Assembly (NCBI RefSeq): GCF_037042905.1
Contig: NC_087250.1
Coordinates: 5,892,001 to 5,956,000, forward strand
Direction: 5' to 3'
Length of the DNA stretch: 64,000 bases
Source of the DNA: Lytechinus pictus
Taxonomy: Eukaryota
A program made the translations under genes and the position numbers. Below are positions 4,313 through 28,100 of this stretch, in pieces. A model generated the notes under the pieces. It was not told the origin of the DNA. It searched no databases and worked only from the letters and a program-made list of their open reading frames with translations. How positions within the stretch are numbered: position 1 is the first letter of the stretch; every line of letters begins with the position of its first letter.

Positions 4313-5814
4313 TATGGTAAGAGTAAAAATCTCATCTTCAGTATGAGCCAGCCATCGTAGCAAATCGCAAAATTCAAACTCGTCTTGCTCATTAATGCGT
4401 GAAGTGTTTTTACATATTCGGTATCAAAATATAGAAGAATGAATGTATGGTATGATGATGATTCCCCTCATTTCCATTTATGCTCTACATTAAACTTTTT
4501 TTTGTTTTACGAAGTAAGAATGCTCTTCTGTAAAATTGTACTTGATTGTATTACTTTATATTACTTTGTATTATGTTTTGAGTGGAAATGAAATAAAATA
4601 ATTGAATTGAATGATGTAAATAAGATATCATGAGTCATTTTCCAATGAGGAGTAAAGACATGGAACCCCTTTTTTTTTCTTTTACACACTGTATAAGCAT
4701 AAACATAGAACAACAATATAATTGTGGTTACAATGGATTTTATTTGATTCATTTTTTCTTCTGCATTCATAACATTCGTATACAATACAATTTTCATTAC
4801 GTAACAAACATAATATATTGGGTAACTGATTTTTGTATGAATCATAACGAAAAAAATATATATGATCTACTACCAACAAAGAAAATTTAACATTTACAGT
4901 TTGCAGGAGAAGGATTGTCATTATAAGCAGATTGCTTGACATGAATGACAACCCCATTAAATTAGTACATACATTATTTCATAAAGCAGAATGGAAATGT
5001 TATTTTGTTCATAATTTCATCAAGATGAAGATGGAGATGAAAGAGGATGATGGTGATAACGGTGAAAGTGAAGGCCATGATGGAGATGATGATGATGGTG
5101 GTGGTGGTGGTGGTCATGGGAGAGTATTGTGATGATGAAATGACAGGAAAAGTGATTTACTAATTAACTGAAATACTGACTATGACTCAAATATAAATGA
5201 CTCTATTATCTTTCTTTATCTCTTTTCTCTTTTTATTTTCATTTCCCTTGTGTGTGCTTCCATGTTTTCTTGTTTCTTGTTCTTCATTATTTTTTTTTTT
5301 GCTGTTCCCTGTTTTGTCATCTTCGTGTCTGTCGTCGTAGGCAATTCTAAAATAATTATTTAGAGGGGTCCACACAATACAAGCACTGCTTTTTAGTGGA
5401 TCCCTCCATTTTCTCAGAATTTTATTTTAAAATGGTTATGATATTTTGCTTATATATAATACTCTGTTTTGTTTTGCTTTTACTTATAGATAAATATCAT
5501 ATACTGTACATGCCAGAATTCATTTTGTCTGTATAAGTTCACTGTAACAATTTTGACCACATTACTTTGTTCTGTTGAAAATGAAATAAAAATAAATTGA
5601 AATGAATTGAAATTGACTATTGATAAAGGTTCCTAGAAATTGGTGTCTGGCAGTACTGCACCGTATATTAAAAGAATATAGAAAGTATACAAAAATACAA
5701 ATATTTGAAATCTTGACTATTTTCATTCAAGTAATTCATGCATTATTTTGTTAATTTATGTATTAAGTCATTTATTTATTCATTTATATATTTATTCTGT
5801 TTCTGTTTGGTAAC

Positions 5815-6034
5815 TCCCGTAGGAGATTGCTCGACAGGGTCGTTTTTAGCTGGTAAAAGCCAAACTGGCATTTTACGTCTAGCTAGGTTAGTCAGTCATA
5901 GTGGCTGACGTTATAGACGGCATAAGTTACCCTCGGGTTTTGTTTATCAAAGTTGAGACAATGGCAGAGTGGTTATTCGAACTCACAACCTTGCTATTAC
6001 GAGTCCAATGCTATAACCACTGGACCACACGACC
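5815..6034 (-). mobile_element. Second tRNA-derived SINE family
   Basis: Minus-strand head ggtcgtgtggtccagtggttatagcattggactcg...gagttcgaat; similar to 40481-40720. Confidence 0.65.
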
Positions 6035-6848
6035 CGTGTTATGTCTATCCATTATTCTTTCTTCATGTGTCAGGAAGTGAGAAAAAAAAACAATATTCCT
6101 CGAAATTTAGAACCAGCATTCGTATATAATACTGTCAATGATACGTGGGCAAACAGCCCCACCCCACTCCTTCTTTGTTGATCACGTGCTGATGACGTCA
6201 CAGCCGATGCTGATCACACTTATTATATTTTCCGGGCGTCATTTCCCATCAAGACTTCATTGTTCTTGAATAAGCCTATACAAAGGAAATAAATCGATGA
6301 ATAAAAACGTGAAAATAAAAATTCATGGGATTGAGAGGAGAAAGAGAAAAAAAAACTTATGGCATTGTGTTTCCACAGATCCAAAACAAATTTCCTGAAA
6401 CTGAATCCCAAATTTCTCGAAATTCAAAGACATTTCCTGAAATTTTCAAGTTTAATTTTCAACAACAAAAAAATCGGCTCATAATACAGCGAGCCTAAAT
6501 TTGGCCCAAATGATTAAAATCAAGGAATTTAACCATTATTTTCACGCCCTCCTTAAAAATAGGACCAAAAGTACGTAATGCGAGCGCGGAGCGCGAGCGG
6601 AAAATTGCGAGCAACATATCGAGGTAAACAATTCTTTAAATGTAACATGGATATCAAAAGTTGAAACTTTTAATTGTTGTTTGATTGTTTTTTCCGATTA
6701 TCCGGAATTACTTGGACTTTTTTCATTACCCGAAAATTAAATGAAAATTATCCGGTTTACCCGAAATTCGGGCAATTTCCTTCAAAGTGGAAACACTGCA
6801 CCTCTCGGTGATAATAGAAGCAATATATTTCCGTTTTAATGAAATTAA

Positions 6849-6944
6849 AGGGGAAGTTCACCCTAAAAGTTTATTGTAAAAATAGCTGTATAATAATAAT
6901 AATAAATCGCTGAAAGTTTGAGTTTTGCGTGGTAAACTTCCCCT
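6849..6944. mobile_element. Very short TTAA-flanked MITE
   Basis: TTAA-aggggaagtt...aacttcccct-TTAA; the right TTAA is shared with the next element. Confidence 0.7.
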
Positions 6945-6948
6945 TTAA

Positions 6949-7495
6949 AGGTCAAGTCCACCCCAGAAAAATGTAGATTTGAATAAATAAAGAAAAATCT
7001 AACTAGCATATCACTGAAAATTTCATCAAAATTGGATGTAAAATAAGAAAGTTATGACATTTTAAAGTGTCTCTTATTTTTCACATAACAGTGATATGCA
7101 CAACTAGGTGAGTCAGTCGATGATGTCCATCACTCACTATTTCTTTTGTTTTTTATTGTTTGAATTATACAATATATCATTTTTATAGATTTGATAATAA
7201 GTACCAACTTGAATGAACCATTATAGTTTTAAACTATCAATGATAATTCCACATGTTCACGAATTAATCGTATCACTTGACAATGATGAGAAAATGAGAA
7301 TATTTCATATCATAAATTACAAAAGAAATAGTGAGTGGGTGACGTCATCAGTCCCCTCATTTACATACCAGCCAGGATGTGCATATAACTGTCTTGTGAA
7401 ATTAAGCGAAACTTAAAATGTCATAAATTTCTTACTTTACATCCGATTTTGATGAAATTTGCAGTGTTATGCATATTGGATTTTTTTTGGGTGAA
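6949..7495. mobile_element. ~600-bp TTAA-flanked MITE (Kolobok-like), 3'-truncated copy
   Basis: Starts TTAA-aggtcaagtccacccc; body matches 22348-22950. Confidence 0.8.
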
Positions 7496-8323
7496 AATCC
7501 GTTGTTTTGATACCCGTGACGAGTGCACGCGAGGCCCGTGTCCAAAACTGAAACAAAAACCTATCCCGTAAACGCGCATATGTAAAGCAATATATTTGAT
7601 TGACCCCCTCCCCCCCCCCCCCCCGGGCGTAGTCCCCTCATTATCGCCGTACCGTCGGAAGAGGTCAATAGAGAGTTTTCGCATTTACTATACCGTACGG
7701 AGACACTCTCTGCAATGAATCGATTTCTTTGAAAATGCAATAAAAATCACTATAGATAGCCAAAAGGCTTTTTCTCGAAAGTTGGGGTACAGGGACAGCA
7801 TCGGAATCTCTTGAATCTGGACAACGACATACTTACAATTAGTTCGTCCGGTGCAAATCTTCGGAAGATCTGCTGTCCAAGTCAACCAACTTTCCACAAA
7901 AGCCTCTCAGCTCTCCATTGTGATTTGACTTGCATTTTCAAAAGAATTGATGCGTTGTAGAGAGTGTGCTCCGTAGCTAAATGAGAAAAGTTCGGATTAT
8001 TGTATTGTAGCATCTTCTTACTAGACGCTTTCTACAACGCATCAATTCATTTGAAAATGCGAGTCGATCGAATTGGTAGATTAGAGGTCATTGTCAAAAC
8101 CATGATGGTCCAGGGCGTACAGCACATCATCGTAAAATTGGAACCGGACAAAAAATTGCAAAATAATTGTCAAGAGATTTGGACGAATCCCCACTGCTTC
8201 ACCGATTATCGACAAAGGCTGCCTAAGGCTCCTTTAATTAACAGAAATTAACGTTAAATGAAATTAACCGTCCGCAAAAAGATTGCAAAAATAGGGCCTA
8301 CACTAGCTACTACTCTACTTACT

Positions 8324-8812
8324 CTAGCATATATATTCGCTATCCTCATCGGCGGATTCTTCTGAGCATGGAACTTCTAAAGGTTCTTCTTCTGAGCAAT
8401 CAGCTGCAGATGAGAGAAGGTACGTTGGGTCAGGGTGCGCTTGATCAATAATAGTGTAATTATCATCCTGCCTTCTGATAATGAAACTACGATCTGGTAA
8501 AGAGGAGGTCAAGGACGCAACAACGTCTCCTCGTACATATGAATACCGTTTGTGGTGTATCTCGTAGACGTTAATTGTTACGCTACCTTCACCCGATAGG
8601 CCCAAGTACCGGCTGGTTCGATGAGGAAGGATGCACTCGGAAATCATTGCATGGCCGCCGCCCGCACCACTCATGATCAGTTCCATTTCTAAGGATGCAC
8701 TATTCGTGTCGTTTGTGACGTACGTGTGGTGACAAAGCGTTAGCTCTCGAATCGTGTAAAACACGTTTCTCAGTATGTCTTTAATAATGCTGGTATAACG
8801 TGAAGGTACCAT
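8324..8812 (-). CDS. Uncharacterised small protein, paralog A (162 aa from first ATG; the ORF track extends to a GTG at 8875)
   Basis: Shares HHTYVTNDTN, VTINVY and DRSFIIRR..IIDQ with the ORFs at 15396 and 18556; ATG in GAAATGG context; acidic C-terminal tail. Confidence 0.75.
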   Translation of the reverse strand: MVPSRYTSIIKDILRNVFYTIRELTLCHHTYVTNDTNSASLEMELIMSGAGGGHAMISECILPHRTSRYLGLSGEGSVTINVYEIHHKRYSYVRGDVVASLTSSLPDRSFIIRRQDDNYTIIDQAHPDPTYLLSSAADCSEEEPLEVPCSEESADEDSEYIC

Positions 8813-10190
8813 TTCTTTGTCATGCACTTTGTTGACATTCTCACATGATACAATGGTTATTCCCTGATCCGCCACATGATACTATACAGCCAGGATTCAC
8901 ACTTAATTTCATTATCTTTTTGTTTGATAAGGTATAGTAATTAATGTTCTTCCGCATACCTACGTAATCTTGCAACTGCGTGCTTAGACGAAGAGGACTT
9001 TGAACAGCTACCGTAATCTTGGGTGCTTTTTCCAACATGTATTAGGCCAGAGTGTACCCACAAAATATTCCCTAATCATGTATTACTTTTATTAGTTCAT
9101 TGCAAATTGGCTTAATATAAGGGTTGGAGCCGGGAGCACCAAGTCATTTATTCAGCTCGGTCCACAAGCTGACCACCCGGACCCCCCTCCAAAAAAAGAC
9201 TGGTCAATTGTCAATTGCGGGGTTAAACGTATTTAATATACTTTTTCCAAAGCTGTTTTTTAGACTCTATATAGCCAAACGTCTTTAGGGTATGTTTTCC
9301 CCAAGCTTATTCACCGGGGCTTTTCTCTCCTCGTTTCTGAAGTGTTTGGGCCCGAGACAAAACATAGGGGTCATATTCTGGCGACAACTTGTTTAGGGGC
9401 CAAAATGTGTTAATGAAGCCCTCCAAAAAATGTTTAGGGGGTTATTTTGCATACAGAGAAAAACTTGTTAAGGGGGTGTTTGAAAATAATCTGGTCACGC
9501 ATGTGTACAGCAATATATTTTGTCTGGCCCCCGGTTGTACAACCGTCGCGACGGTTGTACAACTGGGATCGCCGAGAGCGTGAAACGGCGACATGCCGCC
9601 ATGCCTCAGCTAGCTAGTTTTGTTTAGGGGGTTATTTTGCACACAGAGAAAAAAAACTCGTTTCTGGGGTGTTTGAAAATAATTTTGGTCGCAAGAAATT
9701 TGACAAGCAAAAAAGAAAAAAAAAGGTTTCACTACAAAATGAAGGTATTTTTTCACATTTAATTGCCATTTACTCACACCTCATTCTAGGGGGTGTTGTC
9801 TATGGAGAATTGTACAAGCAGTACCCCTCCGCGGAAAATCTTGGTAAACTTTATATTTCTTAGAACCTATTCGTTATCCCTTATATTGTTCTGCCCTTTA
9901 GACTGTACTACAGTATAGAATGACTCCCCCCTTAGAATTCTATCTACTAAATGGCGACATCAATATGCGGTCTTTGTACATTATTATTATTGATAAATTC
10001 ATTGTAACATAATGCGTGTTTCCACTTGATATCTTAACGCGGCACTCGAGGAGATAAAAGTGTGAAAATTAAGAAGAATTCTTGCGCTAATTTTTAAGTT
10101 GCATCGATTGCATTTATTCTGCAAATATTGTAGGACAGGTACACAGTAAAAAAAAATTGTTCAAAATTTTATACAATGCTGTTAACTACA

Positions 10191-10433
10191 CACAGCAAAA
10201 AGTGTGGTGTTAACCGGTGTATTTAAATAGAGGACCACACCAGTTATTTTACACCGGTGTTAAATTGGTGGTGTTAGTTTTACACCTATAGGTGTTATTA
10301 CAACACCTATGGTTGTTACATTTACACCCGTTGGTGTTATGTTCAATCTCTAGTGTGTTATTTTAACACCTCAGGGTGTGGTCCTCTATTAACACCAAAT
10401 GGTGTCAGTTTTAACACCACAGTTTTAACAGTG
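10191..10433. mobile_element. CAC-terminal MITE, 2-bp TSD CA
   Basis: Near-identical to 4074-4312. Confidence 0.8.
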
Positions 10434-10492
10434 CATGAAACAGTGTATGAAACTTACAGCAGTTGTTTATGAGATAAAACAATCATTCTTAA

Positions 10493-11349
10493 AGGTCAAG
10501 TCCCCCCAGAAAAATGTTTAAATAGAGAAAAATCAAACTAGCATAACACTAAAAACTTTATCAAAATCGGATGTAGAGCAGTCGCGTACCTAGGATTTTC
10601 CACAGGGGGGGGGGGGCAAAACCGTCCGCCAAAAAATCTGACAAGCAAAAAAAAGGTCTTTAATCACAAATAAATCGTACCAGAACAAAAATTGACAAGG
10701 AAAAAAAAAAGGTCTTCAACCTCGTCAGGGGGGGGGGGGGCAAAAAAGGTCTTTCGAGCTCGTCAGGGGGGCAGGTATACGTCCTTTGCATGGGTTGTGA
10801 CTCGTCAGGGGGGGGGGGCAGAGTGCCCCCCGGAGGTACGCTAGTGATGTAGAGTAAGAAAGTTAAGACATTTTAAAGTTTCACTTATTTTTCAAAAAAC
10901 AGTGATACTCAGTGGCATGCAAATAAGACAGTCAATTATGTCTGTCACTCACTATTTCTTTTGTTTTTTCAATTATACAATATTTCGGTTTTTTTTTACA
11001 CATTTGACAATATAGGGACCAACTTGACTGAATCAAATAGTCAAGCAATATTACTTTCACATGTTCATGGAGGAATCAATCGTTGTTTCACTTGACAATG
11101 AGGAGAAAATTGGAATATTTCATATTTCGTGTAATAGAATACAAAGGAAATAGTGAGTGGATGAGTGGATTATCAGTCTCCTCATTGCATACCGACCACA
11201 ATGTGCACTGTTTTGTGAAATTAAGCAACATTTTAAAATGTCATAACTTTCTTATTTTACATCCGATTTTGATGAAGTTTTCAGTGTTTTGCTTGTTGGA
11301 TTTTTCTCTTTTTATTCAAATCAATTTTTTGATGGGGTGAACTTGTCCT
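10493..11349. mobile_element. Kolobok-like MITE interrupted by a hAT-like MITE
   Basis: TTAA-agg...cct-TTAA ends; insert at 10579-10846. Confidence 0.85.
10579..10846. mobile_element. hAT-like MITE (family of 853-1107)
   Basis: Exact 8-bp TSD ATGTAGAG (10571-10578, 10847-10854); imperfect TIR cagtcgcgtacc / ggtacgctagtg. Confidence 0.88.
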
Positions 11350-13593
11350 TTAATTCACTAAAAATTAAATATTAAAAATATTATAAACTCTTAAAACTAC
11401 TACTGCAAGTTGTTTTTTTTTACATTGTAATCAGCGTTGTATCATGCACTCTTAAAACAAATTAGTCAAATTGACTAGACTAGTAGTCAGCTGCCGAGTG
11501 GGTGCAACTGATATGATAATCACTAATTATCACATTTCTTGTGTATATTCTACTCAGAATTAACTCTGTTCTAGTAAAATACGACTAGAAAATATAATAA
11601 GCTGTAAAAACTGCATAATGGTTAGTCGCGTGCATTTGAGTGCCCGAAAGTCCACACACACAGCTTCAACACAGGGAACAGTGGTTTTCATGGACGTGAT
11701 AATGCAGATATCCGGGTATATCTTTATAATTATTAATAATCTCACACCAGATTGATAATAGTGTGAAAATGTTATCCAATTCCATTAATTTGATGCAAAT
11801 ATTATTACAATTAATTCACTATTTACTTATCGCTGTTCATTTGAAAGTGTCCATGTTCACGAACGCTGGATATGGCAAACGGTCTGAAATCACCCATATT
11901 CGAGACCCTGGCATCTTTGTTTTCCCAATGGAATATTCCTAAGGGTCAAAGAGGTCGAGATTGATTGTCATCTCAATGCTAAATAGATTACCTCCAGTTT
12001 GATGTATAATACTTTATGACTGGCATAATGGTTACATCTCATTTTCCCCCCAAACTTTGAGATCGAGCAGGCAGAACATGGCATATATCTGTGTACAACG
12101 TCACGTGACTAACGTATGATAGTTTCCCTTCCTAGAACCTTTTCATTTGAAACAATTAATACAGTCCAAATAAACTTAATTAAAGCATTTAATGTTGTAA
12201 GTAAAATGTTTTTCTACTATAAAACTTTGCCTGCTGATATTTATAATATAGCTACAGTTTGAGGAAGCAAGTATCGAGTCCGGAATTGATTTTGATTTGC
12301 AATAGGGTCTGCGTAAATATACTATATACTAGCAGGCTAGCATCGTCTGCTACGTAAACCAAATGAGCGATAATGACCGAAACTAACCATTATGTGGAGT
12401 TAAAACTGACACGAAATGGTGTTAATAGATCGAGGACCACACCCTGAGGTGTCAGAATTACACCCTGTAGAGATGGGAAATAACACCGTGAGTGTAAATA
12501 TTACAACCAAATGTGTTGCAATGACATGCACCTATAGGTGTTAAACTAAAACTGTCAACTTAACACCGTTGTAAAATAACTGGTGTGGCTCTCTATGTAT
12601 ACCGCCTGTGCAGTTGCACCCAGCTGACCCTATTAACTAGTCACTTTCGACTGATTCGTTTTTAAAGTGTTATTTTAGTGTTGATCAGAGGGTGTAATAT
12701 TAACACCCCAGGGTGTGGACAGGTGTTTAGTTGGGGACACCAACTGGTGTCACTTTATTACCCAAGAAAAAATGTAACTGTATGTTTAGTTTTCTAGTTT
12801 GCAGTGAAGTGTCTTACTCTGAAAATATGTTTTTGATCATGAAAGTATAGGCCTTCATTATAAAATCATCAAAAAAGAAAGATGCTAATTATGCCTTTAC
12901 GGAAGCATCATTATTTTTCTTTTTTTTTTATTGTTGAAAGTTAAAGCTTCGGCGAAACGGCGGGCCTATCTCTTGAACGTATGTAGTCTGCCAAACGGGA
13001 TGATGCATTACTGAAAATTAAAGGTCCATCTGATTGGTGTGTAGACATGAGAAATAAGTTCACAATCACGAAAATATATCTGCTAAAAAAAAAAAAAAAC
13101 TTTCACTTGCAAGGCTGCATGCTTCGTCAGACATTCGTCGTAGCTGGCGATGCAGTTGACGATGCAGCACGACGGATGATGCCTCTCCCCCCCCCCCAAA
13201 AAAAAAAAAAAAAATAAATAAATAAATAAATGCTGCATTATTCTATTCATTCACTTTTAAATTAAACACACAAAATAGACATTCCTTGACCCAAGATTTG
13301 AAGAGTGCTCCTAATTTCTAAAATTTCGATAGCTAAATTAAAGTATAACACAAACAACATGAGGTATGAGAAGTATGCCACAGAAACAACAAGCACCTTT
13401 GAGACACATATTCTTTTTTAATTACACTATCGCTGAAAGACACCCGTTTTTTGTCAAGCTTTTTGCCTATAGCAAGCGAAAACTTATTTTAAAAAAACGA
13501 AGTAATTTTCCGTGATTGTGTAATTAAGAATGTTTTCCCTATGTCTACACAGTTCACAGGGCTAGATTTACGGTTTTAAAGTGTGTGTGTGTG

Positions 13594-14017
13594 CACTGTA
13601 AAAACTGTGGTGTTAAAACTGACACCAATTGGTGTTAATAGAGGACCACACCCTGAGGTGTTAAAATAACACCCTAGATATTGAACATAATACCAAAGTG
13701 TCTAAATGTAACAACCATAGGTGTAAATAACTAACACCACCAATTTAACACTGGTGTAAAATAACTGGTGTGGTCCTCTATGTACACCGGTTAACACCAC
13801 ACACTGTAAAAACTGTGGTGTTAAAACTGACACCAGTTGGTGTTAATAGAGGACCACACCCTGAGGTGTTAAAATAACACCCTAGAGATTTAGTAACAAC
13901 TAAAGGTGTTGTAATAACACCTATGGGTGTAAAACTAACACCACCAATTTAACACCGGTGTAAAATAACTGGTATGGTCCTCTATGTACACCGGTTAACA
14001 CCACAGTTTTTGCTGTG
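13594..14017. mobile_element. Head-to-tail dimer of the CAC-terminal MITE
   Basis: cactgtaaaaactgtggtg starts at 13594 and ~13802; 2-bp TG flanks. Confidence 0.8.
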
Positions 14018-15052
14018 TGTACAATTAACAATCACAATCAGATGATACTCCTTACATTTTTTACGTTTTTGGAAAAAAGAGAGGGCAGCTAAGTAGCCCC
14101 TGATGCACACCAATCAGATGAACTTTTTAAAATACCAAAATTCACATCATAAGAATACAAACAAAAATGAGATTTTGCTTTTCTCAATTTGAATCGATCT
14201 TTGAATTATTCCATGCTGTCAATAAGTCATTGCTGCCAAGCTGTTTTCTCCATAGTGGCCTTGTTTTGCTTCCACTCTTTCCACACAACATGTTTGTTTC
14301 TTTGGTGTCCAGGTTGCACATGCTAATGAGGCAAAGAGAGAGAGAGAGAGAACCACGCATTAAGAAGCTTACGATCAATTGCAACTTAATTTTGGATCCC
14401 AAGATCAATCATTAATCTTGCAATCAATATATTTATTGAAACTCTATCAACTCAATAACTGGTCATATTTTTGGACAAAAATTTGGATTGATTTATCTAT
14501 TATTAATTGCCAATTATTATCATTAATTGCCAATTTGATTATTGCCAATTTGCAATAGATATTTGCAACTGAAAGCATTTTTTTCTTCTATTTTTTATAA
14601 CTTTATATGAGACATTACCATGCGCAGCAGGTGGGGGCCGTTGAGTTTTTCCTCATGCAGATTTAAACGAAATTAGTCTGAGAAGGCCGTGCATACAGAT
14701 CCTTCAAATTCATTGCTATCTTATAAATCCGACTGAAACACATTTGAAACAGCTTGGTGTTCTTACTCTCTTACACATTAGTTTTAAGAAAATAAAGTTT
14801 TGTTTTACCTCATCTGTATTTGTCTGCATAGGATCATGACCGTTAACAAAAAAATATACAAGAGGAGAACGGATTGAAAAATGCTTCGCTGTTAATTCCA
14901 TACACCATTCGAATGACTGAATTCATCCATGGTTTTAACGCGACACCCTAGTCTTAACAGCTAACCCTATACCCCTAACAGTATTTTGTCTTGACGAAAA
15001 TAAAAAGCAAGCTAGAAGCAATTGCCGGATAGCAATTGACGCTAAAGCAAAT

Positions 15053-15359
15053 GGCCCGTATTCTGAAGTCAGGTTTAACTTAGACCATGGTCTATGTGCT
15101 GAAAATATGCTGGGAAGCCAAAAGTGTCAACATTTTTATTATGTTGTATGTTTCTTATGTTTACTGTGCTTTTTCCTGCAGTGGTTCCTCGATGATGGTG
15201 AGGACAATCATCTACTTATACTTCCTAGACAATTATTAATGATTTGAGAGCCAAATGAGCTGAAATATGATATCTCTATATATACTGTTAGTGATTTATG
15301 CAACAATTGGCTATCCATACTTAAACCACAGCTTTAAACCTGACTTCAGAATATGGACC
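15053..15359. mobile_element. ~300-bp MITE
   Basis: TIR ggcccgtattctgaagtcagg / cctgacttcagaatatggacc; an interrupted copy lies at 37424-38152. Confidence 0.78.
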
Positions 15360-15395
15360 AATGTGTCTAGGTCCTAGGAGCCATTACTTACCCAG

Positions 15396-15815
15396 TTAGC
15401 CTCCTCTACAGGTGGAGCTGATCCTCCTCTCCGTATCTTCTACGAAAGGATTTGCCCCATATTTCTGATCTACGAGAATCAGATTGCCGCTCCGCCGCTT
15501 GACGATGAAACTACGGTCCGAATTATCGTTCCTGGTCGCCGCAACCCCGCCCGACGAATCGAAGACGGTCACCGTGATATCTTCGTGGTCCGTTGGAAAG
15601 CGCTCGAACCGACGAGGGTTGATTCCACGCCTTTCAACACGATTGCCAGAGTGTTTTAGTTCAACTACCACGCGTTCATTTGTATCGTTTGCAATGTGGG
15701 TGTTGTGTTGCTGAAAGAGAGATACTAGTTTTACGATATCTTTCCGATCTACGCCAGATAGTTTTGCCGCCAAATCAATTAATTCTGACTCTCTTGCCCT
15801 CCCCCAAAATGACAT
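15396..15815 (-). CDS. Uncharacterised small protein, paralog B (139 aa)
   Basis: GC-richer ORF with HNTHIANDTN...ITVTV...SDRSFIVKRR..LILVDQKYG..F.EDTER, shared with paralog C. Confidence 0.85.
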   Translation of the reverse strand: MSFWGRARESELIDLAAKLSGVDRKDIVKLVSLFQQHNTHIANDTNERVVVELKHSGNRVERRGINPRRFERFPTDHEDITVTVFDSSGGVAATRNDNSDRSFIVKRRSGNLILVDQKYGANPFVEDTERRISSTCRGG

Positions 15816-16620
15816 TTTATACGATACTTTCTTTTACCAATTGGAGCGGCGATAATCTCGTTCGGTATATACCGGAAAATAATGTGAACTTCCTAATTAG
15901 TAGCGTCATGCACCGATCGAGTGTCTCGGTTTCTGGTGGCACCAGAGGCGGTGCCTGCGGCGGGGGGGGGGGGGGGGGGGGGGGCAGGGGAATTATGACC
16001 GCCCCAATTCATTTGAGAGGTACAAGAGGGGGGGGGGGGGGTTAAATCGTAAAAAGGGGAAACGTACATGTCAGAGGTAGGCCTATTAATAGCTCGATCA
16101 ATCGTATTGTGTGTGAAAATTTTCACATTCATCGTTTATTACTATTTTGCATGGGATAAAGGTAAATGATGGTGACCCCCCCCAAAAAAAAAAAACCTAA
16201 ACAAAAAAAAATCAACGGAAACACTCAGTTACAAAAAAACAAAAGCAAACAACAAACTGATCACACTTGGAAAATGTATTATAAAATTTCATCAGATTTC
16301 TTTTAATAGGCCTATATAAGAATTTAACTGCCATATGACCATTCCTGTTGCACTCTTTTTCTTTCGTTCCTCCTTTTATTCCCAATTTCCCAGTTATCCA
16401 CGGCACTGTAATCATGACATGCATTAACATATTCGAAACACTGAACAAACATATTCTTTCTCATATAGATAAGAATTATGTTGACCCAATTTACCCTGAT
16501 GAATCATTGCATTTTGGTGATAAAGTGTCATTAAAAAATAAAGGCTCGGGACTTTAATAATAATTTGATCATTTGAAATTTGTCCTTCGGTTGCTTTTAC
16601 CTCCCTATTTAGGTAGATCA

Positions 16621-16820
16621 GGGAGGCGCGATAGCTCAGTCGGTAGAGCGGGGGTTTCGGATTCCGGTGACCCGGGTTCGATTCCGAAGTGGTGCGCTAG
16701 TGCCCTTTGGTAAGGCATTTATCCTCATTACCAGGTCCCTCGGAGAGGACCTTAAGCCGTCGGTCCCCTGGTTGCTTGCTCACAGGCATTTGTGCGTTCT
16801 TAGCAGTCAGGTAAAAACCT
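16621..16820 (+). mobile_element. tRNA-derived SINE (third family)
   Basis: A box tagctcagtcgg and B box ggttcgattcc; no closable acceptor stem; continues into a non-tRNA body. Confidence 0.65.
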
Positions 16821-17580
16821 CGATATAACATAACATGAACTCTTCAGGATTATGGGATTTCCATGTATTATTTACCCATATATGTGCAAACGTAGTTGTA
16901 ATTACAATAGGCCTACCAAATGACGGTTATTAACATTGAACTTTGCTGTCAGACTATATAGCTAGCCTATTTACTGAACTAAGCTAGACTCATGCTTACA
17001 CACTGAGATTACATTAAACAAAATTAATATCATCTGTATAATGTTAGTACTTATAAGATAACGATTGTGAGTTCGAAGTCCTATTCACTGGATTTCATTT
17101 TTATTTTACGTGATCATAACATGACACCAAAGTATGACAAATGTACAGATAAACATGTCTATTTTTTTTGCTCCAAAAAGAAAGAAATGAGATCAATATG
17201 CTGCGTAATTAAAATAAAAGTGAAATGTAGTACAGTATAGTAAATAAAGTGTAAATAGGTGCTAGGCCTTTTCTAAGCCTGTGTTCGTAATGATATTCTT
17301 GCAAAAGGTTGCGATCATCTTTGAAAATTCTAGTTTTAATTTAAAGTTTTCAGAATTAAGCGACATCGACCAGTCCGTCCGAATCGTATTGTCGAAAGTT
17401 ACAAAGTGGTTGCAAATGTTTGTTTTCCGGGCTCTTTTACTCATGGCGATATAAATCTTCTGCCCAAGTTTAGTGACGTTTTCTCGACTAAATCGTTCCA
17501 CGTGTGTAGATCAATATCACATTTATCTGAAAAATACACAAAAAATACGAGATATTTGGTAAAAGGAACGTATGATATGT

Positions 17581-17875
17581 AATAATAATAATAATTATAC
17601 TTGCTTATATAGCGCTTAATACTTACTTTGTTAGAAGTCTCTAAGCGCTCTACAGTATATGCAGCATAATTACCCTGGCTTTAGCAGTGCAGCTGTTACG
17701 AGCGCTGCGTTCCAAGGAATAAATTCCTGCCAGGTACCCATTTACCTCACCTGGGTTGAGTGCAGCACATTGTGGATAAATTTCTTGCTGAAGGAAATTA
17801 CGCCATGGCTGGGATTCGAACCCACGACCCTCTGTTTCAAAGTCCGGAGACTAATCCACTGGGCCACAACGCTCC
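17581..17875 (-). mobile_element. tRNA-derived SINE, near full length with (TAT)n tail
   Basis: Reverse complement of the 1293-1806 SINE without the insert. Confidence 0.82.
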
Positions 17876-18555
17876 ACGTTGTATATGTATGACATGATAA
17901 AGGAAGAAAATGAGAAGGAAAAGAATTAGCAATATCTGAAGATGAACGAATGAAGAAACTAAAAGAAAACATTTTTTTAAATACCTCTGTAAAGTATTGC
18001 AATTATTCTTACGGGTATATTGAGTTCATCGATAATCTATACAAAATTTAAACATTGCTTTGTCAAATAATATATGTATATCATGAATATAGAAAATAAC
18101 AGAAATTGAAATGTTTCAGCAGATATGATTGATTTCAGTATTCAGTGGTCGGGCAATGTAGAATCTAGAATTTTTCAACAGGATTAATTCGATAGGTGTC
18201 ATAGAATTGGTATATGGTTCACATAACTGAATTAAAGGATAATTAGGGGCACGGCGCAGCTAGATGTTTTGATAACGGGGGAGAGGTGGATAGGGATGGG
18301 GCTATACACCCGGGAATATGACTTTAAAAAATGTGTATATATAGATTTACAACCAACACCTCTCCTTATACTATGCTAATTCCTTCTTTGCTGCTTTCTT
18401 TTGAAAATGATGACTTTTTTGCTTAATTGTCATTTTTTCGAGGACGAAATACCCTTAATTTTAGGTTAAATAAATTTTTTGCTTGTCATTTTTTTCCTTG
18501 GGAAAATGTGCCCCCCGGGCCCCTTGGAATATCCTGGATCCGCCCCTGGCTTACC

Positions 18556-18951
18556 CTATGATGTAGTTGTCTGACTTTTATGTCGTTCTGTATCTTCCGT
18601 GAAGGCAGTCGCTCCATATTTCTGATCTACAAGAGTCAGTTTCCTATTTCGCTTCTTGACGATGAAACTACGATCCGATTCGTCCCTCCTCGTAGCGATA
18701 ACCTGCTCCGACGCGTAATCAAGGAGAGAAACCGTGATCCTGCCGTTCTTCGTTTCATACCGCACGTACTGATGAGGAGCAATTGTACACCTTTCTTCGC
18801 GGGTTTCTTCGCAGTCTTTGGGGTGTACTTCAAGTTTGATTTTTACAGGTTTATTCGTATCGTTTGCAATATGGGTGTGATGCTTTGGACTATTTCGTAT
18901 ATCTCCAACTTGCCCGCCGGAATCTGAGCCGCCTGCCCCCGAATCAGACAT
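18556..18951 (-). CDS. Uncharacterised small protein, paralog C (131 aa)
   Basis: HHTHIANDTN...ITVSL...SDRSFIVKKR..LTLVDQKYG..F.EDTER; motif blocks and frame conserved with paralog B while the flanks are unrelated. Confidence 0.85.
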   Translation of the reverse strand: MSDSGAGGSDSGGQVGDIRNSPKHHTHIANDTNKPVKIKLEVHPKDCEETREERCTIAPHQYVRYETKNGRITVSLLDYASEQVIATRRDESDRSFIVKKRNRKLTLVDQKYGATAFTEDTERHKSQTTTS

Positions 18952-19296
18952 ATTCTATGTGCATGTGCGTGATCGATATGCCTAAATATTATTTAGTTAA
19001 GCAATGTTTTTATCTTATTATCTGTCATGACGGTAAGCTGTATGATGACCGATATATTCGTGAGAGTATCAGTTATTACCTGGGATTACTCTGGTAATCG
19101 CACTTTGTTCATGTTTGCATATTATGCCGGCCCTTTTCGCTGGAAATTAAGTTTTATATGGTCTTTTCATGAGTATAGGGCCTAAGGCAACACAATGAGA
19201 CTTACGAGAGCACTGGAGTTCATTCCAAGAAAGTTATTATATTGGATATTGCATCGCACATACACACCCTCACACACAGACGCATACATGTATTAA

Positions 19297-19825
19297 AGGT
19301 CAAATCCACCCCAGAAAAATAATGATCTGAATAGAGAAATATTAACAAGAATAACCCTGAAACTTTCATCAAACTCGGATGTAAAATAAGATGATATTTT
19401 ACAAGTTATTTGCACAACTCATGACATGCAAATGAGAGATGTCCCTCACTATTTTTCTTTTTTTTAAATGTTACTTTGAATTATACAATATTTCAATCGG
19501 ACCAACTTGACTGAACCATAAAATGCTATAACAATGGCAATTCCACATATTCAGGGAAAGATAAACTACTTTCACATTACCATCAGGAGAATATTAGAAT
19601 ATCTAATATTTCAATAATAAAATATAAAAGAAATTGTGAGTGACGTCATCAGTCCCCTCATTGGCATACCTACTGCAGGATAAGCATAACTGTTTGTGAA
19701 GTTAAGCGAAACTGAAATGTCATAACTTTGTTTTAAACTTGATTTTGATGAAATTTTCAGTGATATGCTTGTTGGATTTTTCTCTTTTCAGTCAAATCAG
19801 CTCTTTGATGGAGTGGACTTGTCCG
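19297..19825. mobile_element. Kolobok-like MITE, diverged copy
   Basis: TTAA flanks; body matches 22348-22950. Confidence 0.8.
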
Positions 19826-19963
19826 TTAATCTTTAAAAAAACCCAAAACGCAAAATGAAAAACACAACCAACAATATTCAACCTCTATCATTCCAATTTG
19901 TGTCATAATCATGTTCTAATATTCCTTTTCCATCATCATTATCATTATTTCCACCACCACTAT

Positions 19964-19995
<32 letters not shown>

Positions 19996-21807
19996 TCATC
20001 ACCATCATCGTTAGCATTTTTTTTGCTTACTATGGCAATCCATCTTCTGCTATTAATTTTATGCTAAATGATTTATACCTAATTTACTGTCAATATATGT
20101 TTGTTATATCTACGTTATATCGTTATGTAGAAGAAAAATAAATTCAAATCAAATCAAATTTGGCGTATGATATATACTACATAGTATGATTCAATCAAGA
20201 TCTTTATTTCATACATGTGAAATATTACATCTACATGTTCACCTAATTATATTTTTCTACATAATATGGCACATGAATTCTTCTGACGTATTTACAAAGG
20301 TAGAGTCACTCCATATATATGATATGCAGATATAATGGCATATAATTGTGATTTATTTATTGGGTTCATTAACCCATTGCCCGCTGATGTTGCAATCATG
20401 CACATTCGTACAATTAAATTCAACAATCGTAATAATTAGTTTTCTCCCCAAATCTTCAAATCAGATAAGCTAATAACAGGCAATAATTCTTGGGTAACAT
20501 CTATAGTCATATATCAATCTATATCAATTAAGGAAATTGGAAATCTTGAATTAAAGAAAATAACATGGAAACAAATGTCATCATAATCCCGCCAAAATTA
20601 ACTCAGCGTGCAAAAAGTTAAGAAATAATGAACAAGCCCAATATGATAAAAGGGTGACCAATTCAAACCTGCTGCTACAGTAACATACTAGAGGGGAAAA
20701 AAATCACACGGGGCGGGGGTGATTTAGCTCCCCCCAATTGCTCGAAAGAGCCCTGGAAATCCCCACTCATTGCGATGTAAAAGCCAGTGGCAGATCAGAT
20801 GGGGGGGGGGGGGGAGGTGGGAGCACTGCCGGCCGGTGCCCACAATCAAAATTTGTAATGTAAATATAATGTTTCTACCCTTTTCTACCTTTTTTATCCC
20901 TGTCATATCTCTCTAAGTTCCCGCCCATCTTTTCGGATGCAAACCAATCAAAATCTCCATAGCATTTAGTGATCGCAAATGCTCATAACTTTTTCATTAT
21001 TTGTCTGATTTTTCTCAACTTTCTTTGATCTTTTGTTTCTTTGATTTTTCTGTTTCTACACAAGCCCACTTGTTTCAAAGCTTTCATTTCCCTTTAATAA
21101 GATTAAATCGTGTTTGTGAATCCAATGCAGCCTTTGCAAAATTAAGGCCCTGTCTTACAAATGGTGGTGACAGATTAATTTCAAATTTAAATTATGATTG
21201 ACTTTAATTCAATTTGAGATCAATCCCAATATGATTTCAAATTCAAATTATGATTGACTTTAATTTAATTTGAGATCAATCCCAATATGATTTCAATTTG
21301 AATCGAGTATAATAACTCTTTGTAAAACATGCCCCAGATCTTTTCAATCATAAAACTGGGAGAAAAACATATCACACACATGTAAACAGAAGTACGTACT
21401 CCAGTAAATAATGTTAATTCTCAAAATCAAATACAAATTTCAAATTCACAGGGAAATGTCATATACAATCATACATACATGTATATAATTTGTGAAGAAG
21501 CAAACCATGAATTAAAAAAATATATCTATAATTGATAATTGTGATGTAATAATGTACATAACCAACCATTGATGAATCTATCATAAAAAATATCATTGTA
21601 AAACCAGCACCACCCTATGTTATTAACAAAAAAAAAGAAAGAAAAAAGAATGAGTTATCTAATTTCTCGAAGTCATTAGTGCATTGGCTTTTTGGGGGGA
21701 GTGGATTTATATTTGCTGACCCCATACTTTGTGAAAAACACTTGAAAAACGTGTAACAGAGACATCTTTGCGGAAAGCAAAGTCGTGTACAAGCAAGAAA
21801 TTCTTCA

Positions 21808-22061: not shown

Positions 22062-22347
22062 TCTAATCATCCTAGGACAACTGCACGGTCAGGGAAAGTG
22101 AGACAATGACTTCCACATAAGGCATTAACAAAATTCTTGAATGATAAATACAATAGTTTTCTTCCCCAATGAACCATGCGAAGGAACACAAGAAGAATTA
22201 CAGTTAAACAAATTCTTGACACTCTGATTGCTTCCCATAATTTTAAGCCAGACTTAGACCATAGACCTCCAAGCCCTCCATGTATGTATATACACTTGTG
22301 CTTTATACCTGTATGCCAGTCAAATTCACAAATACCCATCTTTTTAA

Positions 22348-22950
22348 AGGTCAAGTCCACTCCAGAAAAATGTAGATTTGAATAAATAGAGAAAAATCAA
22401 ACTAACATAACGCTGAAAATTTCATCAAAATCAGATGTAAAATGAGAAAGTTATGACACTTTAAAGTTTCGCTTATTTTTCACAAAACAGTGATATGCAC
22501 AATTCAGTGACATGCAAATGAGGCAGTCGATGATGTCCCTCACTCACTATTTCTTTTGTTTTTTATTGTTTGAATTATATAATATTTCATTTTTTACAGA
22601 TTTGACAATAAGGACAAACTTGACTGAACCATATAATATTAAACAATGCTAATTGCACGTGTTCAGGGAGGAATTAATCTTTGTTTCACTTGACAACCAG
22701 GAGAAAATTAGAATATTTCATATTTCACATAATAAAATACAAAAGAAATAGTGAGTGGATGACGTCATCAGTCTCCTCATTTGCATACCGGCAAGGATGT
22801 GCATATAACAATTTTGTGAAATTAAGCGAAACTTTAAAATGTCATAACTTTCTTATTTTACATCCGATTTTGATGAAATTTGTAGTGTTATGTTTGTTGG
22901 ATTTTTGTCTTTTTATTCAAATCAACTTTTTTTGGGGGTGGACTTGTCCT
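22348..22950. mobile_element. Kolobok-like MITE, full length (603 bp)
   Basis: TTAA-aggtcaagtccac ... gtggacttgtcct-TTAA. Confidence 0.88.
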
Positions 22951-23084
22951 TTAATAGTTTCCAAGTGTATTTGACTGAGAGATGTATGACACACATGCAC
23001 ATGTTTTGTTTGTCTGATACCAGTAAATACATCCACAATAAAAATCCAGAAAGTGTGACAGATGCCATCCAATGCCTTGTCATA

Positions 23085-23380: not shown

Positions 23381-25143
23381 TCAAGTGCTGTTCTCGACAT
23401 CTCCAAGATCCATAGAGACATTTGCACAGTGTGTATTGTACCCACTATCAACTCCTGTCCTGGTTACCTGAGCAAGGAGATTCACCGATATAGGCCTTAG
23501 AGGTGTTGCTTCCGCTTTGCTGATATCGCCTGAGATGTCTTCTTCATGCCTGTTTGCGTCATTCAAGAGTTTCTGATGGGAACGAAGGTTGGTTAGATTA
23601 CCATTTTCCGTGGCCGGACTGGAGAGAGGAGTCTTATTTTGGAGGCTTACACTTCTTGCAGGAACATCCTGGGCAGAATGACTATGTGGAAGGTCCAAAG
23701 AGATAGGGCCTTCCTGCATGTCAGCCTCTTGGTATTGGAGTGGATCTGAGGTACTTCTTTGAAAGACGGGATGGGAGATATGACCTTGTGGCATGGTAGG
23801 ACAATGTTCCGTATCTTCACGCTGATGGAGCAAGCTTGATGAATGCGTTCCGACAGAGTCCCTTCTATGGCTCTGCAGATCTGCCTCGGATAAAGACAGC
23901 ATTAGCCAATCTTCCTGGACATCTGTGTTCTCTCTCTCCTCTGCATACTTCCTCAAAGAGTCATAGCTCCGGCTTGTTGTCATAGAGCTCGGGGCGGACT
24001 TCTTTGTAAAAGACGTCTGCATCCGACAATCCTCAACCCTGTCAAAGAATTGCACTTCATCAAACCTAAGATTTTTGGAAGACTCTTGTTGGAATTGCCC
24101 ATGGGTCAAGTCACAGGACTGACCTATACCTTTGCACATTTCAGTGGTCTCCTTTTTGGGAGATGCATTCGCTATCAAGGATACAGAACTAAGGTCCATT
24201 CCTGAGATGGCACTTCGATCACCCTTGACAGGCATTCCAAATGGTGGATTGAAAGATAGTGTGCCGTATCGCATGGTCGATGTCAGACACGTTGCTGGTA
24301 CCGTTGGGCTCTGGAATTGATAAGACTGTTCTCCTGAACGCGTCCCATGCTTCAAAGACGAGGAACAGGTATTCCCTACCCAGGATACACTGGATTGATC
24401 ACATGACTCGGTCGACCTGCAGGAGTTGGACACAGCACCGTCCAGAGCACTTGAAGTTCTCAAGAACATCTTTGGCTTTGCAGGATAATGGGAGGCGATG
24501 TCTTCAGAAAAAGAAGTGAAATTGTCCTTGCAGTCCGAACCATCCTCTTTTATCCCACCATGTTTAGAAGCTTTGATAAGGTTTTCCCTAAGCTCTTCAC
24601 AACCTGACTCAAAATGTTTCTCTCTCTCTGGAACATCGCCAGTCCCTGCTGATGATACATCGTCCACCGATTCTAACCCTGTAGCATCTTCCTGAGGACC
24701 TGCCCGAAAGAACTTTGTTACCTTACCACCTGCATCGGCTTCAAGATTCTCCACTCTCTCTGGCCGATCACCCGCAACCTCTTCTCGTCCATCCAGGGAA
24801 AACAGACTGGTTTCCATCAACAGTTCCGTGTTGCTATCGTGCACTCGTGACGACGTGATCGGCATGCTTTGCCCCGAGAAAGGATCACCACCGCTTTCCG
24901 GATACCTAATAGGGCTGAATTCTGTCCCGATGTGGAAGGAGACCATCTTGTGGCGTGCCTTGGATCTGAAAGACTGGACATTGACCCTGTCTTTGGATAC
25001 GCCTTCTTCGGTCCTGACAGGAGAGATTGGTAGGTCACCAGTCTTTGGTATAGGGCTGAGGGCAGTACTGGCTTCCAGCGAGAAGTCACATGGTATGTTC
25101 TGCCTCGGTGGACTGCTTGCATGAATGTCCTCCTGAATGTGAT
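23381..25143 (-). CDS. BORA: Bora terminal coding exon 9 (DHIQED...[24 protein letters not shown])
   Basis: Acceptor ttcttcaaacag in frame with the 603-aa ORF; DSGYNT phosphodegron near the C-terminus; TGA stop. Confidence 0.9.
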
Positions 25144-28100
25144 CTGTTTGAAGAAAAGCAATAAAAGAATAATACGAAGAACAATACAGCATTTATGAGT
25201 TGCTGATTATCTAGTTGCCTATTCGAAGGCACACTATATATTATCCTGGCTATAGCTCCAGCTGCTAAAGGCTCTTGGTGCATTCATGGAATTAATCCTG
25301 CCGGGTACCCATTCATCTCACCTGGGTTGAGTGCAGTACAACGTGGGTTAATTTCTTGCTGAAGGGAAAACACGCCATGGCTGGGCATCGAACCCATGTC
25401 CCTCTGATTGAAACACAAGAGCCCTAACCACTAGACTACGATGCCCTAAGAACAGCTTGATGATACATGTATGTCAATACTTATAATACTGATAGGCTTT
25501 GAGGGAGATAACATAGCCTATATATCCCAAATTAGTCTCATATTGTCCTAAGCTATGATGAGGGCAATATGAATCTACTAAGGGAAATACTAGTAGATGT
25601 GGTATAGAAAATAAATGTCAGTCAATATTATTATCACCTAGAGCTGTGTAATGAGCAATCAAGCTATATATGCGTGTTCGGCTGTCAGTACTTCTGATTT
25701 GAGGTTACTCACGAAGTAATACCTTGTAAAGCAATTCTGACGTATGTTTTTCATCGCGCAGGCACGCACCAAGGCACATTCATACACAACCTTGCGCCTG
25801 CATTTGATTAGTTGGAAATCTTGCGCCTGGATTTTATTACTTGGAAAATATGGATATTAAGGATTGGACCGATATTTCAGTTTAAGAGGGACAATAGGAA
25901 AATGACAAATTTCACCGAGGAGAGTGTATATTTTAGTCCCTAATCATATAGCTAAGCCCTGGCTGGGTAATTGTACATATTTTCTGTTGATTTTCATCAA
26001 TTAGACAGAGAATATAGGTGTTTATATATTGTCTCCACCATGCTTCATTCAGGCAATAACAAATGAATATCCTCACATATTGTAATAGAACTGTTTCTAA
26101 TAAAAAACATCTAATAAAAAAGAGAAGAATAACCAGTCAGAAAACAATTTTCCTGGTTTTGAATCCCCATATGCTGCTACACAAAATCCTTTGGTGTCAA
26201 ACTGATCAAAACTTAGTTGAAAACTTTGCTCTTATAACCCACAATGCTAATCAAATTTGGTTAGCAAATTTGCTCCTTCAAGAAAAATCTAAATATTTCC
26301 TTAAGACGGCTTATTGTTTGTGTGGGGGTTGCTGTCACATACATGTATCTCCTTGTGTTACACGCTATTGCCTGATAGCAAATTTCTGTTATTAAAATAA
26401 ACACCATTTAAGAACAAATCAAAGGAAACCAAAACCCAAGAAGAAAAGCAATCTCATTGGAGTAAAATGAGAGGAACTCGAACTCGATTATGAAATGAGC
26501 AAGTTATAGACATTTTAAATCTTGTTGTTCTTTCTATGAGGATTGGCCACCATGCTTCAGAATCATAGAATTTGTAGACAATTCTCCATTTGATTTCCCC
26601 ATTATCTTTCATATTGCATCTTGCCTGCTTCTGAGCATAACATATGTCATGAGAAAATGAAATTCACATAAGATATGTCAAGGTCAGGAGGAGATAATGT
26701 GAAATACAGGGTATGTAGAATAAAGGGGACAATCTGTAAACTTGTGTACAAAACAAATGGAGAGTTGTCCACGAAATCAGCCATTTTGAATCATGTTTGC
26801 CAATTTGAGGATCCCCATAGAAAGTACAACACTTTTCAAACTTCCATAACTCGCTTATTCTACAACCAATTTTGATGAAACTAGTTTTAGATTGCTCCTC
26901 TCATTTTATTTTTTCTGATAAGTTGGATTCTCTCCTTGTTGTTGTATTTTGGTTTCCTTGAACAAATTAGCATCCACCAAACAGGTAAGGACCTACCCCT
27001 GTTACTCATAAGACTGGTATCCATACTAATCTCTTCTTGAGTACCATGTAGCCTTGATGAGCAACCTGGTTCATTTCGCATTGAGATATGGTCACCAATC
27101 CTCTGTATGGGGCTCAACTCTCTGGTCAAGCCAAGCGTGAAATCCTTCCTTCTCTCCATCGCATCTCCATCTCCTCCTCCATCGTTCTCATCAAATTCTT
27201 CTATCGATCCGTGAGCGAATTCTTCCGCTCCGTCACTCCTATCACCAAATTCGTCGATCCCCTTGTGAGGAGACTCTTTCCTTCGGTCAATCTGTCTGTC
27301 CCCTTCGCTTCTATTCTCGTCCGTTCCGCTAAATTCTTGAGAGAAGTCTCTCCTTCCCTCCATCCCTATATTTTCATCTCCTACCTCAGCCATGTGGGGT
27401 CTGAATTCGAGAATATCAGGTTTGGAGAGACTGGTTTCCATCATGTTATCGGAAGGCTTTGTGGATTGGTAGAGTGAGTTGCCCTTGATGATTAAGGGTG
27501 AGATATGGTCACCATTACTGAGAGACTCCACTGGGCTGGGTGCAATAATAGGGCTTGGTGGTAGACCTGTGGGACAACAAAAGAGGAAAGAAAGAAAGGA
27601 AAAACAAAGAGGAAGGAAGGAAAGGTAGAAAGGATTGAAGGAAGGAAGAAAGAATGAAAGAAGAAAGGGAGGAAAAGAAGGAAGGAAGAAGGGAAGGAAT
27701 AAAGAATAAAGAAGGAAGAGAAGGAGAATTAGGAGCAGTATAAGAAAGAGTGAAAAAAAGAAGCAGAATAAGAAAACAAATTAATTGTAAATTTATGTTC
27801 ACATAATATCCCTTTTTTCAGCTGCTTAAGACTAAGACAATGTAAGACAGGGAATGAAATATTGCTATCCTTTCCTTAAGACACCTGTGAAATGGGGAAA
27901 ATCTGTTTTATGGCATTTCAAGGCATATTCATTGTCTGATAGACAAAACAACCTCGTTTCTTTACAATACCATGACATTTGCGGTATCAAGGACCAAATA
28001 TCATCAAAGTTTCAACGTCATGATATTTCAATATATTCAACATACATGTACTGTAAATCCAAGGCAAGTGACATACCTTTGCTATGTGGGGCTTCTCTTA

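Follow-up and report, generated by a model that had tools for sequence, protein, structure and literature searches.

The window, a 64-kb stretch of DNA, contains three paralogous genes, A, B, and C, on the minus strand, as are all features described below. The list of open reading frames (ORFs) places the coding sequence of gene A at 8324..8812 in one exon (162 aa), with a putative start codon and six further ATGs within 200 nt upstream of the ORF start, that of gene B at 15396..15815 (139 aa), and that of gene C at 18556..18951 (131 aa). B and C were related at 52% over 106 aa, and A to the others at 25–28%. No fourth copy was detected in the 64-kb window by tblastn. A TATA-like TATAAAA was observed at 19158, upstream of gene C.

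The three proteins share the motifs of an unnamed metazoan family of small beta-sandwich proteins (QQHNTH..N..SDRSFIVK..YG), and their C-terminal tails are longer than those of other family members. A family profile search among 1.84 billion proteins gave 43 matches at E ≤1e-3, 31 of which were aligned with A, B, and C. The family occurs in sea urchin, clam, and eel, with Strongylocentrotus purpuratus LOC105446948, Ruditapes philippinarum LOC132725596, and Gymnothorax javanicus GJAV_G00088630 as named members. B was 37% identical to the sea urchin protein (P0022) over 99 aa (E 4e-12). Single-sequence homolog searches with C and with A returned no match, and none of the three exact sequences was present in the protein collection searched. 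The domain is also found in fusions, namely P0040 (450 aa), P0012 (285 aa), and P0022, in which it lies behind a Death domain; a likeness of the B N-terminus to this Death domain was considered and was not recovered by BLASTP. In an AlphaFold2 model, the core of C formed eight strands (mean pLDDT 82.7). The best E-value in a PDB sequence search was 0.059, and Foldseek with the structure model gave no match at E ≤0.001. The best VIA-align hit had a Z of 8.5 (rmsd 3.0, 87 aligned) and unrelated beta-sandwiches tied, so no family was assigned. ESM Atlas feature scores for DUF7748 (PF24928) were 0.89 for C and 0.91 for family member P0002; these Atlas leads are plant clusters given without alignment or E-value, and kinship with DUF7748 is a lead only. 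The copy of Pfam searched, which may lack PF24928, gave no match for the domain, and a literature search found no paper on DUF7748, PF24928, LOC105446948, or LOC132725596. The family has no known function, a question separate from that of the splice sites.

The original prediction held that each gene carries a consensus splice donor 1–4 nt after its stop codon, and this was the case in all three. In gene A, TAG (8326-8324) is followed by A and then GTAAGT (8317..8322, with GT at 8322-8321); in gene B, TAA (15398-15396) is followed by CTGG and GTAAGT (15386..15391, with GT at 15391-15390); and in gene C, TAG (18558-18556) is followed by G and GTAAGC (18549..18554, with GT at 18554-18553). The stop-to-donor distances are 1, 4, and 1 nt, respectively, all below 50 nt, and all three donors are in phase 1, an agreement expected in 1 of 9 cases by chance given the first. 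The predicted persistence of the donor despite differing C-terminal tails was likewise borne out, as GTAAG is invariant and the tails past a conserved DQ comprise 38 (A), 22 (B), and 21 (C) aa. Over both strands of the whole window, GTAAG[TC] occurs 0–4 nt past 15 of 7,525 stop triplets (0.2%), a figure that includes the three sites, whose paralogous copies are not independent of each other. The last 40 exon nucleotides before the donors were identical at 7, 15, and 10 of 40 positions, and intron positions +7 to +40 at 10, 6, and 10 of 34, both of which correspond to background. The shuffle control for the flank alignments was too lenient, and scores of 30–45 were taken as short low-complexity matches. 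Because the flanks are at background identity, the common GTAAG is not passive sequence likeness. Together with the phase 1 position of all donors, this suggests, from the sequence, that the donors derive from an intron of the founder gene and have been maintained by selection. In the three homologous family loci with DNA, an acceptor-like site precedes the ATG by 2–28 nt and the stop is followed by no donor (0 of 3), indicating that the stop-adjacent donor is not family-wide.

Use of the donors was evaluated in 4 of 24 matching sequencing runs (X1, X2, X4, and X21) aligned to the stretch 5200-19900, with 15 of 926 joints listed. None of the matching runs listed was on record as RNA, and X2 was only guessed to be RNA. 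In X2, a 709-nt contig (record 11) aligned in two pieces, 8700-8323 and 6275-5945 (378 + 331 nt), with no mismatch or gap, and covered the coding sequence of A from 8700 to 8323 with zero differences. The junction joining 8323 to 6275 was thus provided by one contig and was present in one of the four runs. It delimits a 3′UTR intron of 2,047 nt (6276..8322, GT..AG), whose acceptor AG at 6277-6276 is preceded by a T-rich tract. The depth remaining for the first 176 nt of this intron was at most ~1.3, compared with 22.5 for the spliced contig, contig depth being a rough measure. Contig 11 is not considered to stem from a DNA retrocopy, since the coverage pattern of X2, with depth 0 in the unique bins 15511-16001 and 14529-15019, is unlike that of a genomic run. 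These results show that the gene A donor is used and that the intron is removed from the untranslated tail. Of the two designs originally proposed, a 3′UTR intron in each gene or a cassette of alternative whole-CDS exons, contig 11 shows the former for A, and it is spliced where unspliced read-through would have spoken against both.

Exon 2 of gene A (5366..6275) is a non-coding 3′UTR exon defined by X2 contigs, with a provisional 3′ end. Records 10 (5761-5562) and 9 (5591-5366) form contigs of their own, located farther downstream in this exon, and 5944-5762 was unbridged by any listed X2 piece. An interspersed repeat is located at 5869-6034, and AATAAA was found in or near the exon at 5796, 5780, 5776, 5426, and 5237. 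Pieces of X1, X4, and X21 at 5348-5563 were discounted as support, since the zero depth of X21 in bin 8146-8636 indicates that this stretch may be repeated elsewhere. The sequence of exon 2 also bears on whether the donors mark a phase 1 junction within the coding sequence of a formerly longer, fused gene, or serve stop read-through or a joined C-B-A message. The common phase and the occurrence of the domain in P0040, P0012, and P0022 are in keeping with such an origin. However, since every donor is preceded by a stop, a fused protein could arise only by read-through, and read-through of the A stop in the spliced frame would add just 17 codons. The longest stop-free frame of exon 2 is 54 codons, and the C-terminal part of P0040 had no tblastn match in the window. 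We regard these readings as highly improbable.

In contrast to gene A, the coding sequences of B and C were covered by no listed piece in any of the four runs, and bin 15511-16001 (gene B) had a depth of 0 in all four. Small shares of the B-C stretch, mostly from interspersed repeats, were present in 20 of the 24 matching runs listed. In X2, record 15 (18561-18382, depth 4.7) contains 7 exon nt and continues without splicing past the C donor into the intron side, short of the 31 exon letters required for bridging a donor. Behind B, an AATAAA lies 251 nt past the donor, within a repeat. Such a pattern would arise if only A were spliced and the donors of B and C were leftover or partly used, with the genes silent, decaying, or ending unspliced at a nearby signal. 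However, X1, X4, and X21 showed many differences from the window and resemble a related species, and coverage holes prove nothing. In addition, the ORFs of B and C are intact with family motifs retained, and GTAAG persists amid flanks at background level. Splicing confined to A is thus unlikely in our estimation, with little probability assigned to it.

We also searched for terminal exons downstream of B and C. For B, a candidate exon chosen by eye (14415..14824) has an AG at 14825-14824, outside the 12 best-ranked acceptor sites of the scan, and an AATAAA at 14437; further candidate acceptors are located at 15110, 14323, and 13083, and 14022-15050 contains no repeat within the window. For C, the acceptor and hexamer scan gave a candidate exon at 17085..17527 (acceptor G at 17527, AATAAA at 17105), with further candidate acceptors at 17936 and 18227. 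The acceptor earlier proposed at ~17988 exists as a site, but it did not rank among the top 12 YAG sites of the B-C interval and was supported by no listed piece or joint. AT-rich DNA frequently contains an acceptor paired with an AATAAA, and such pairs are no proof. X2 depths of 0.28 (16984-17474) and 0.64 (14038-14528) in the bins of the candidate exons were treated as noise. A transposon inserted directly behind the C donor was considered and dropped, as neither a second copy nor a distinct inverted end was found in the window. An acceptor-like site at 15711 inside B probably represents only the codons of S-L-F-Q-Q-H, as P0028 has the same N-terminal run. No Rfam match was obtained in 4500-21000.

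Apart from repeats and short matches, exon 2 of A resembled nothing in the DNA behind B or C, which leaves separate, duplicated last exons putative. This result is compatible with A, B, and C being alternative first exons, each comprising a whole CDS and driven by its own promoter, all splicing to one non-coding 3′UTR exon at 6275 across introns of 2.0, 9.1, and 12.3 kb, with the promoter and coding exon alone having been duplicated. This would be the layout of UGT1A or the protocadherins with a non-coding constant part. The sole demonstrated last exon does lie downstream of all three genes, the donors are conserved, and no canonical poly(A) hexamer was found for 1,214 nt past the C donor. On the other hand, 3′UTRs of genes so divergent are not expected to align anyway, and transcripts from B or C could reach 6275 only by skipping multiple strong acceptors as well as AATAAA sites. 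Contig 11 has no break or branch at the junction, which fits with 6275 having no other splice partner in X2; this is weak evidence, as no expression of B or C was observed in that run. A non-coding constant exon would also give less reason for such a design. We consider a shared last exon rather unlikely.

Taken together, A, B, and C are likely separately transcribed tandem paralogs, each with a stop-proximal 3′UTR intron and its own non-coding last exon. Counting against this are the presence of the junction in only one of four runs, as a single contig, the detection of splicing in A alone, the unspliced record 15 at the C donor, and the lack of the donor at all three homologous loci. In each gene, a single exon would hold the entire coding sequence and end 1–4 nt past the stop, followed by the intron and a last exon with a poly(A) site. 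We infer that this layout was already present in the founder of the cluster and was copied by duplication, and that the donors of B and C are used with separate last exons. Splicing may have been retained because the poly(A) signal sits in the last exon and spliced mRNA would be better processed and exported. The EJC sits ~20–24 nt before a junction, and a stop-proximal junction generally escapes NMD. In A, B, and C, the EJC would lie inside the last codons and be removed by the ribosome, so these introns probably escape NMD and would carry no cost. The original statement that a junction less than ~50 nt past the stop escapes NMD holds as a rule, although PMC7310861 describes some NMD-sensitive cases among introns lying under 50 nt from the stop.

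The likely arrangement matters little in itself, introns just past the stop being the commonest kind of 3′UTR intron. The A junction fixes the gene model of A, and the cluster would be a tidy example of an intron kept through two duplications while its flanks were fully replaced. If B and C did share the last exon of A, duplicating only a promoter and coding exon could build a multi-protein locus, with three different complete proteins under one 3′UTR and a purely regulatory constant part, which would be unusual. Among the literature matches listed, there was no clear precedent for a last exon that is both shared and non-coding, although published cases may exist.

UGT1A and the clustered protocadherins consist of tandem large exons, each with a terminal donor, upstream of a downstream exon, and the reading frame of each variable exon continues into shared coding exons. 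A, B, and C likewise are large exons in tandem that terminate in a donor and have a further exon downstream. Unlike those systems, every exon here ends in a stop, the sole demonstrated downstream exon (that of A) is non-coding, and the spliced frame of A closes without opening into shared coding sequence. Splicing to 6275 was seen only for A, in X2, with no listed piece over the B or C coding sequence. The closer comparison is with proximal 3′UTR introns, as covered in a zebrafish rbm8a/magoh study (PMC7310861). Introns within 50 nt past the stop are reported there for 861 zebrafish and 1,239 human genes, compared with 582 and 489 genes, respectively, for other 3′UTR introns, and the proximal position is kept in fish, mouse, and human in 167 genes. 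As in that study, the intron of A and the putative introns of B and C lie within 50 nt past a normal stop, precede a non-coding last exon, and keep their position between related genes; they differ in their stop-to-donor distance of 1–4 nt and in belonging to three divergent invertebrate paralogs arranged in tandem, with the whole coding sequence in one exon. The stop-proximal 3′UTR intron is thus an already known class, found in about a thousand vertebrate genes.

Re-reading of the sequence placed a splice donor directly behind the stop codon of each of the three tandem paralogous ORFs, as the original prediction had it. On the minus strand, the GTAAG donor starts after 1 nt behind the stops of ORF A (8812-8324) and ORF C (18951-18556), and after 4 nt behind that of ORF B (15815-15396). 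B and C are 52% identical over 106 aa, A is 25-28% identical to both, and no fourth copy was found in the window. For comparison with chance, GTAAG[TC] lies 0-4 nt behind 15 of the 7,525 stop triplets of the window. The C-terminal tails are indeed unlike (38, 22, and 21 aa after the conserved DQ in A, B, and C, respectively). Because of this, and because identity among the three is at background level over the last 40 nt ahead of the donors and from +7 to +40 past them, common descent alone is insufficient to explain the donor match. All three donors are in phase 1 relative to the ORF, a point absent from the original prediction. Donor position is tied to the stop, not to the domain, and the stop-adjacent donors are a real, non-random feature whose function was demonstrated in one of the three genes.

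That gene is A. Four of 24 listed sequencing runs were aligned on window 5200-19900. As 3′UTR intron usage would have it, a minus-strand contig of run X2 (record 11; 709 nt, depth 22.5) joins the coding exon to a downstream exon across the donor. Its alignment splits into two blocks (8700-8322 and 6274-5945) without mismatches or gaps. One G at the junction is assignable to either side; placed canonically, it ends exon 1 at 8323 and starts exon 2 at 6275 (378 + 331 = 709), giving a GT..AG intron of 2,047 nt at 8322-6276 on the minus strand. Further X2 contigs were found downstream (5761-5562 and 5591-5366). Depth over the first 176 intron bases was at most ~1.3, compared with 22.5 for the spliced contig, contig depth being a rough measure; from this low leftover depth, the spliced form seems dominant in X2. 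The spliced frame closes 17 codons past the stop and no exon 2 frame exceeds 54 codons; exon 2 is non-coding. Beside this structure, it is hardly probable at all that the donors are left over from a coding junction, work together with stop read-through, or join one ORF to the next. X2 was taken as RNA by guess, but a genomic DNA source is disfavoured by its lack of depth (0) in unique bins. The junction was present in one of the four runs; the other three carry many differences from the window and look like a related species. An ATTAAA at window 8238, 84 nt inside the intron and with little X2 depth, could be the end of an unspliced A isoform.

No piece covering the B or C coding sequence was found among the 24 of ~46,500 pieces listed, mostly repeats, and no B or C junction among the 15 of 926 joints listed for the four runs. 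Depth was 0 in all four runs in bin 15511-16001. At C's donor a single piece is listed: X2 record 15 (18561-18382; depth 4.7, 0 differences) carries 7 exon letters and continues unspliced into the intron side. Pre-mRNA or read-through may be its source, and it weighs mildly against splicing at C. It is quite improbable that the donors of B and C are unused. A GC-rich stretch (18548-18250) begins at +6 of C's donor; judged by its depth across the four runs it may be a repeat, but no second copy was found within the window. On the minus strand, candidate acceptor and poly(A) pairs lie at 17527 with AATAAA at 17105 for C, and at 14824 with AATAAA at 14437 for B, such pairs being common in AT-rich DNA. 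The acceptor originally proposed at 17988 fell outside the top 12 ranked between C and B. The last exon at 6275, joined to A in X2, could instead be common to all three genes, which appears rather unlikely. Probably, A, B, and C are three genes copied from one founder; in each, the coding exon would be followed by an intron just behind the stop and then by a separate last exon. A founder of this structure would have been duplicated into the three. The exon junction complex (EJC) sits ~20-24 nt before a junction; here it would fall inside the last codons, the ribosome would clear it, and NMD would not be triggered. In-frame tail changes would shift stop and donor together, and phase and spacing would thereby stay constant.

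A profile of the three cores retrieved 43 proteins at E ≤ 0.001, of which 34 were kept; the 9 left out (292-2,423 aa) gave mostly short repeated matches. Members are mostly 100-170 aa, with the consensus QQHNTHVAN..SDRSFIVK..KYG. Two of the 20 clusters looked up were named (S. purpuratus LOC105446948 and an eel hypothetical protein), and an additional named protein is from a clam. In LOC105446948, the family domain follows a putative Death domain that fell short of the Pfam cut-off (E 0.0045), a hint that the family may have an immune or signalling role. Judged by the nearest named homolog and by its repeat sequences, the window is probably sea urchin DNA. The family domain itself had no Pfam match. 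AlphaFold2 models the C core as an all-beta domain of eight strands (pLDDT 82.7); its best structural matches are unrelated beta-sandwiches (Z ≤ 8.5), so no function is assignable from structure.

A metagenome scan yielded three homologous loci (L001-L003) out of 63 pattern matches. None has a donor-like site within 55 nt of the stop, the best donor consensus scores being 4-5 of 11 compared with 6-8 for the window sites. All three, by reading, have an acceptor-like site 2-28 nt before the ATG. These TTGTAG sites (L001:3996, L002:3379, and L003:585) suggest a putative 5′UTR intron in the family. Taken together, in this small sample of three, the family CDS seems to be kept in a single exon and the stop-adjacent intron looks peculiar to the lineage of the A/B/C cluster. 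At L002:3409-4394, the domain ORF is followed ~30 nt past its stop by a second ORF of 215 aa, whose ATG is closely preceded by an acceptor-like site. This ORF had no Pfam match. It shares 36% identity (E 6e-37) with the segment that P0040, a family protein with a glycine zipper at its end, carries fused after the domain; the pair thus exists both fused and split.

Upstream of the cluster, a multi-exon minus-strand gene (23381-29649; last coding exon ~590 codons) had no Pfam match; LRRKLF and SPSISPIK runs in its exon 29649-29411 are reminiscent of Bora. A ~550-nt element with inverted ends occurs in many copies (6944-7485, 10846-11354, 19290-19830, 22338-22956, and others), as do shorter SINE-like repeats (1291-1429, 17666-17877, and 5869-6034). 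About one-third of intergenic DNA is repeated within the window.

One report counts the genes whose intron lies <50 nt past the stop: 861 in zebrafish, 921 in mouse, and 1,239 in human. This proximal class outnumbers the distal one in all three species, and intron position is kept in 167 genes (PMC7310861). The same report describes an NMD-sensitive minority of proximal-intron genes, mostly from 36 nt on, and cites a reporter in which a stop placed 6 nt upstream of the final junction did not set off NMD (PMC7310861). In another, most annotated 3′UTR junctions lie less than 55 nt away, and in one cell line the 55-nt threshold made no difference to UPF1 sensitivity (PMC13223760). At the coding level, the A/B/C locus differs from a UGT1A/protocadherin-type locus in that its ORFs close with a stop ahead of the donor rather than running on in frame. 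Gene A is a member of the stop-proximal 3′UTR intron class, and the A/B/C feature is best filed as a case of this already known class.
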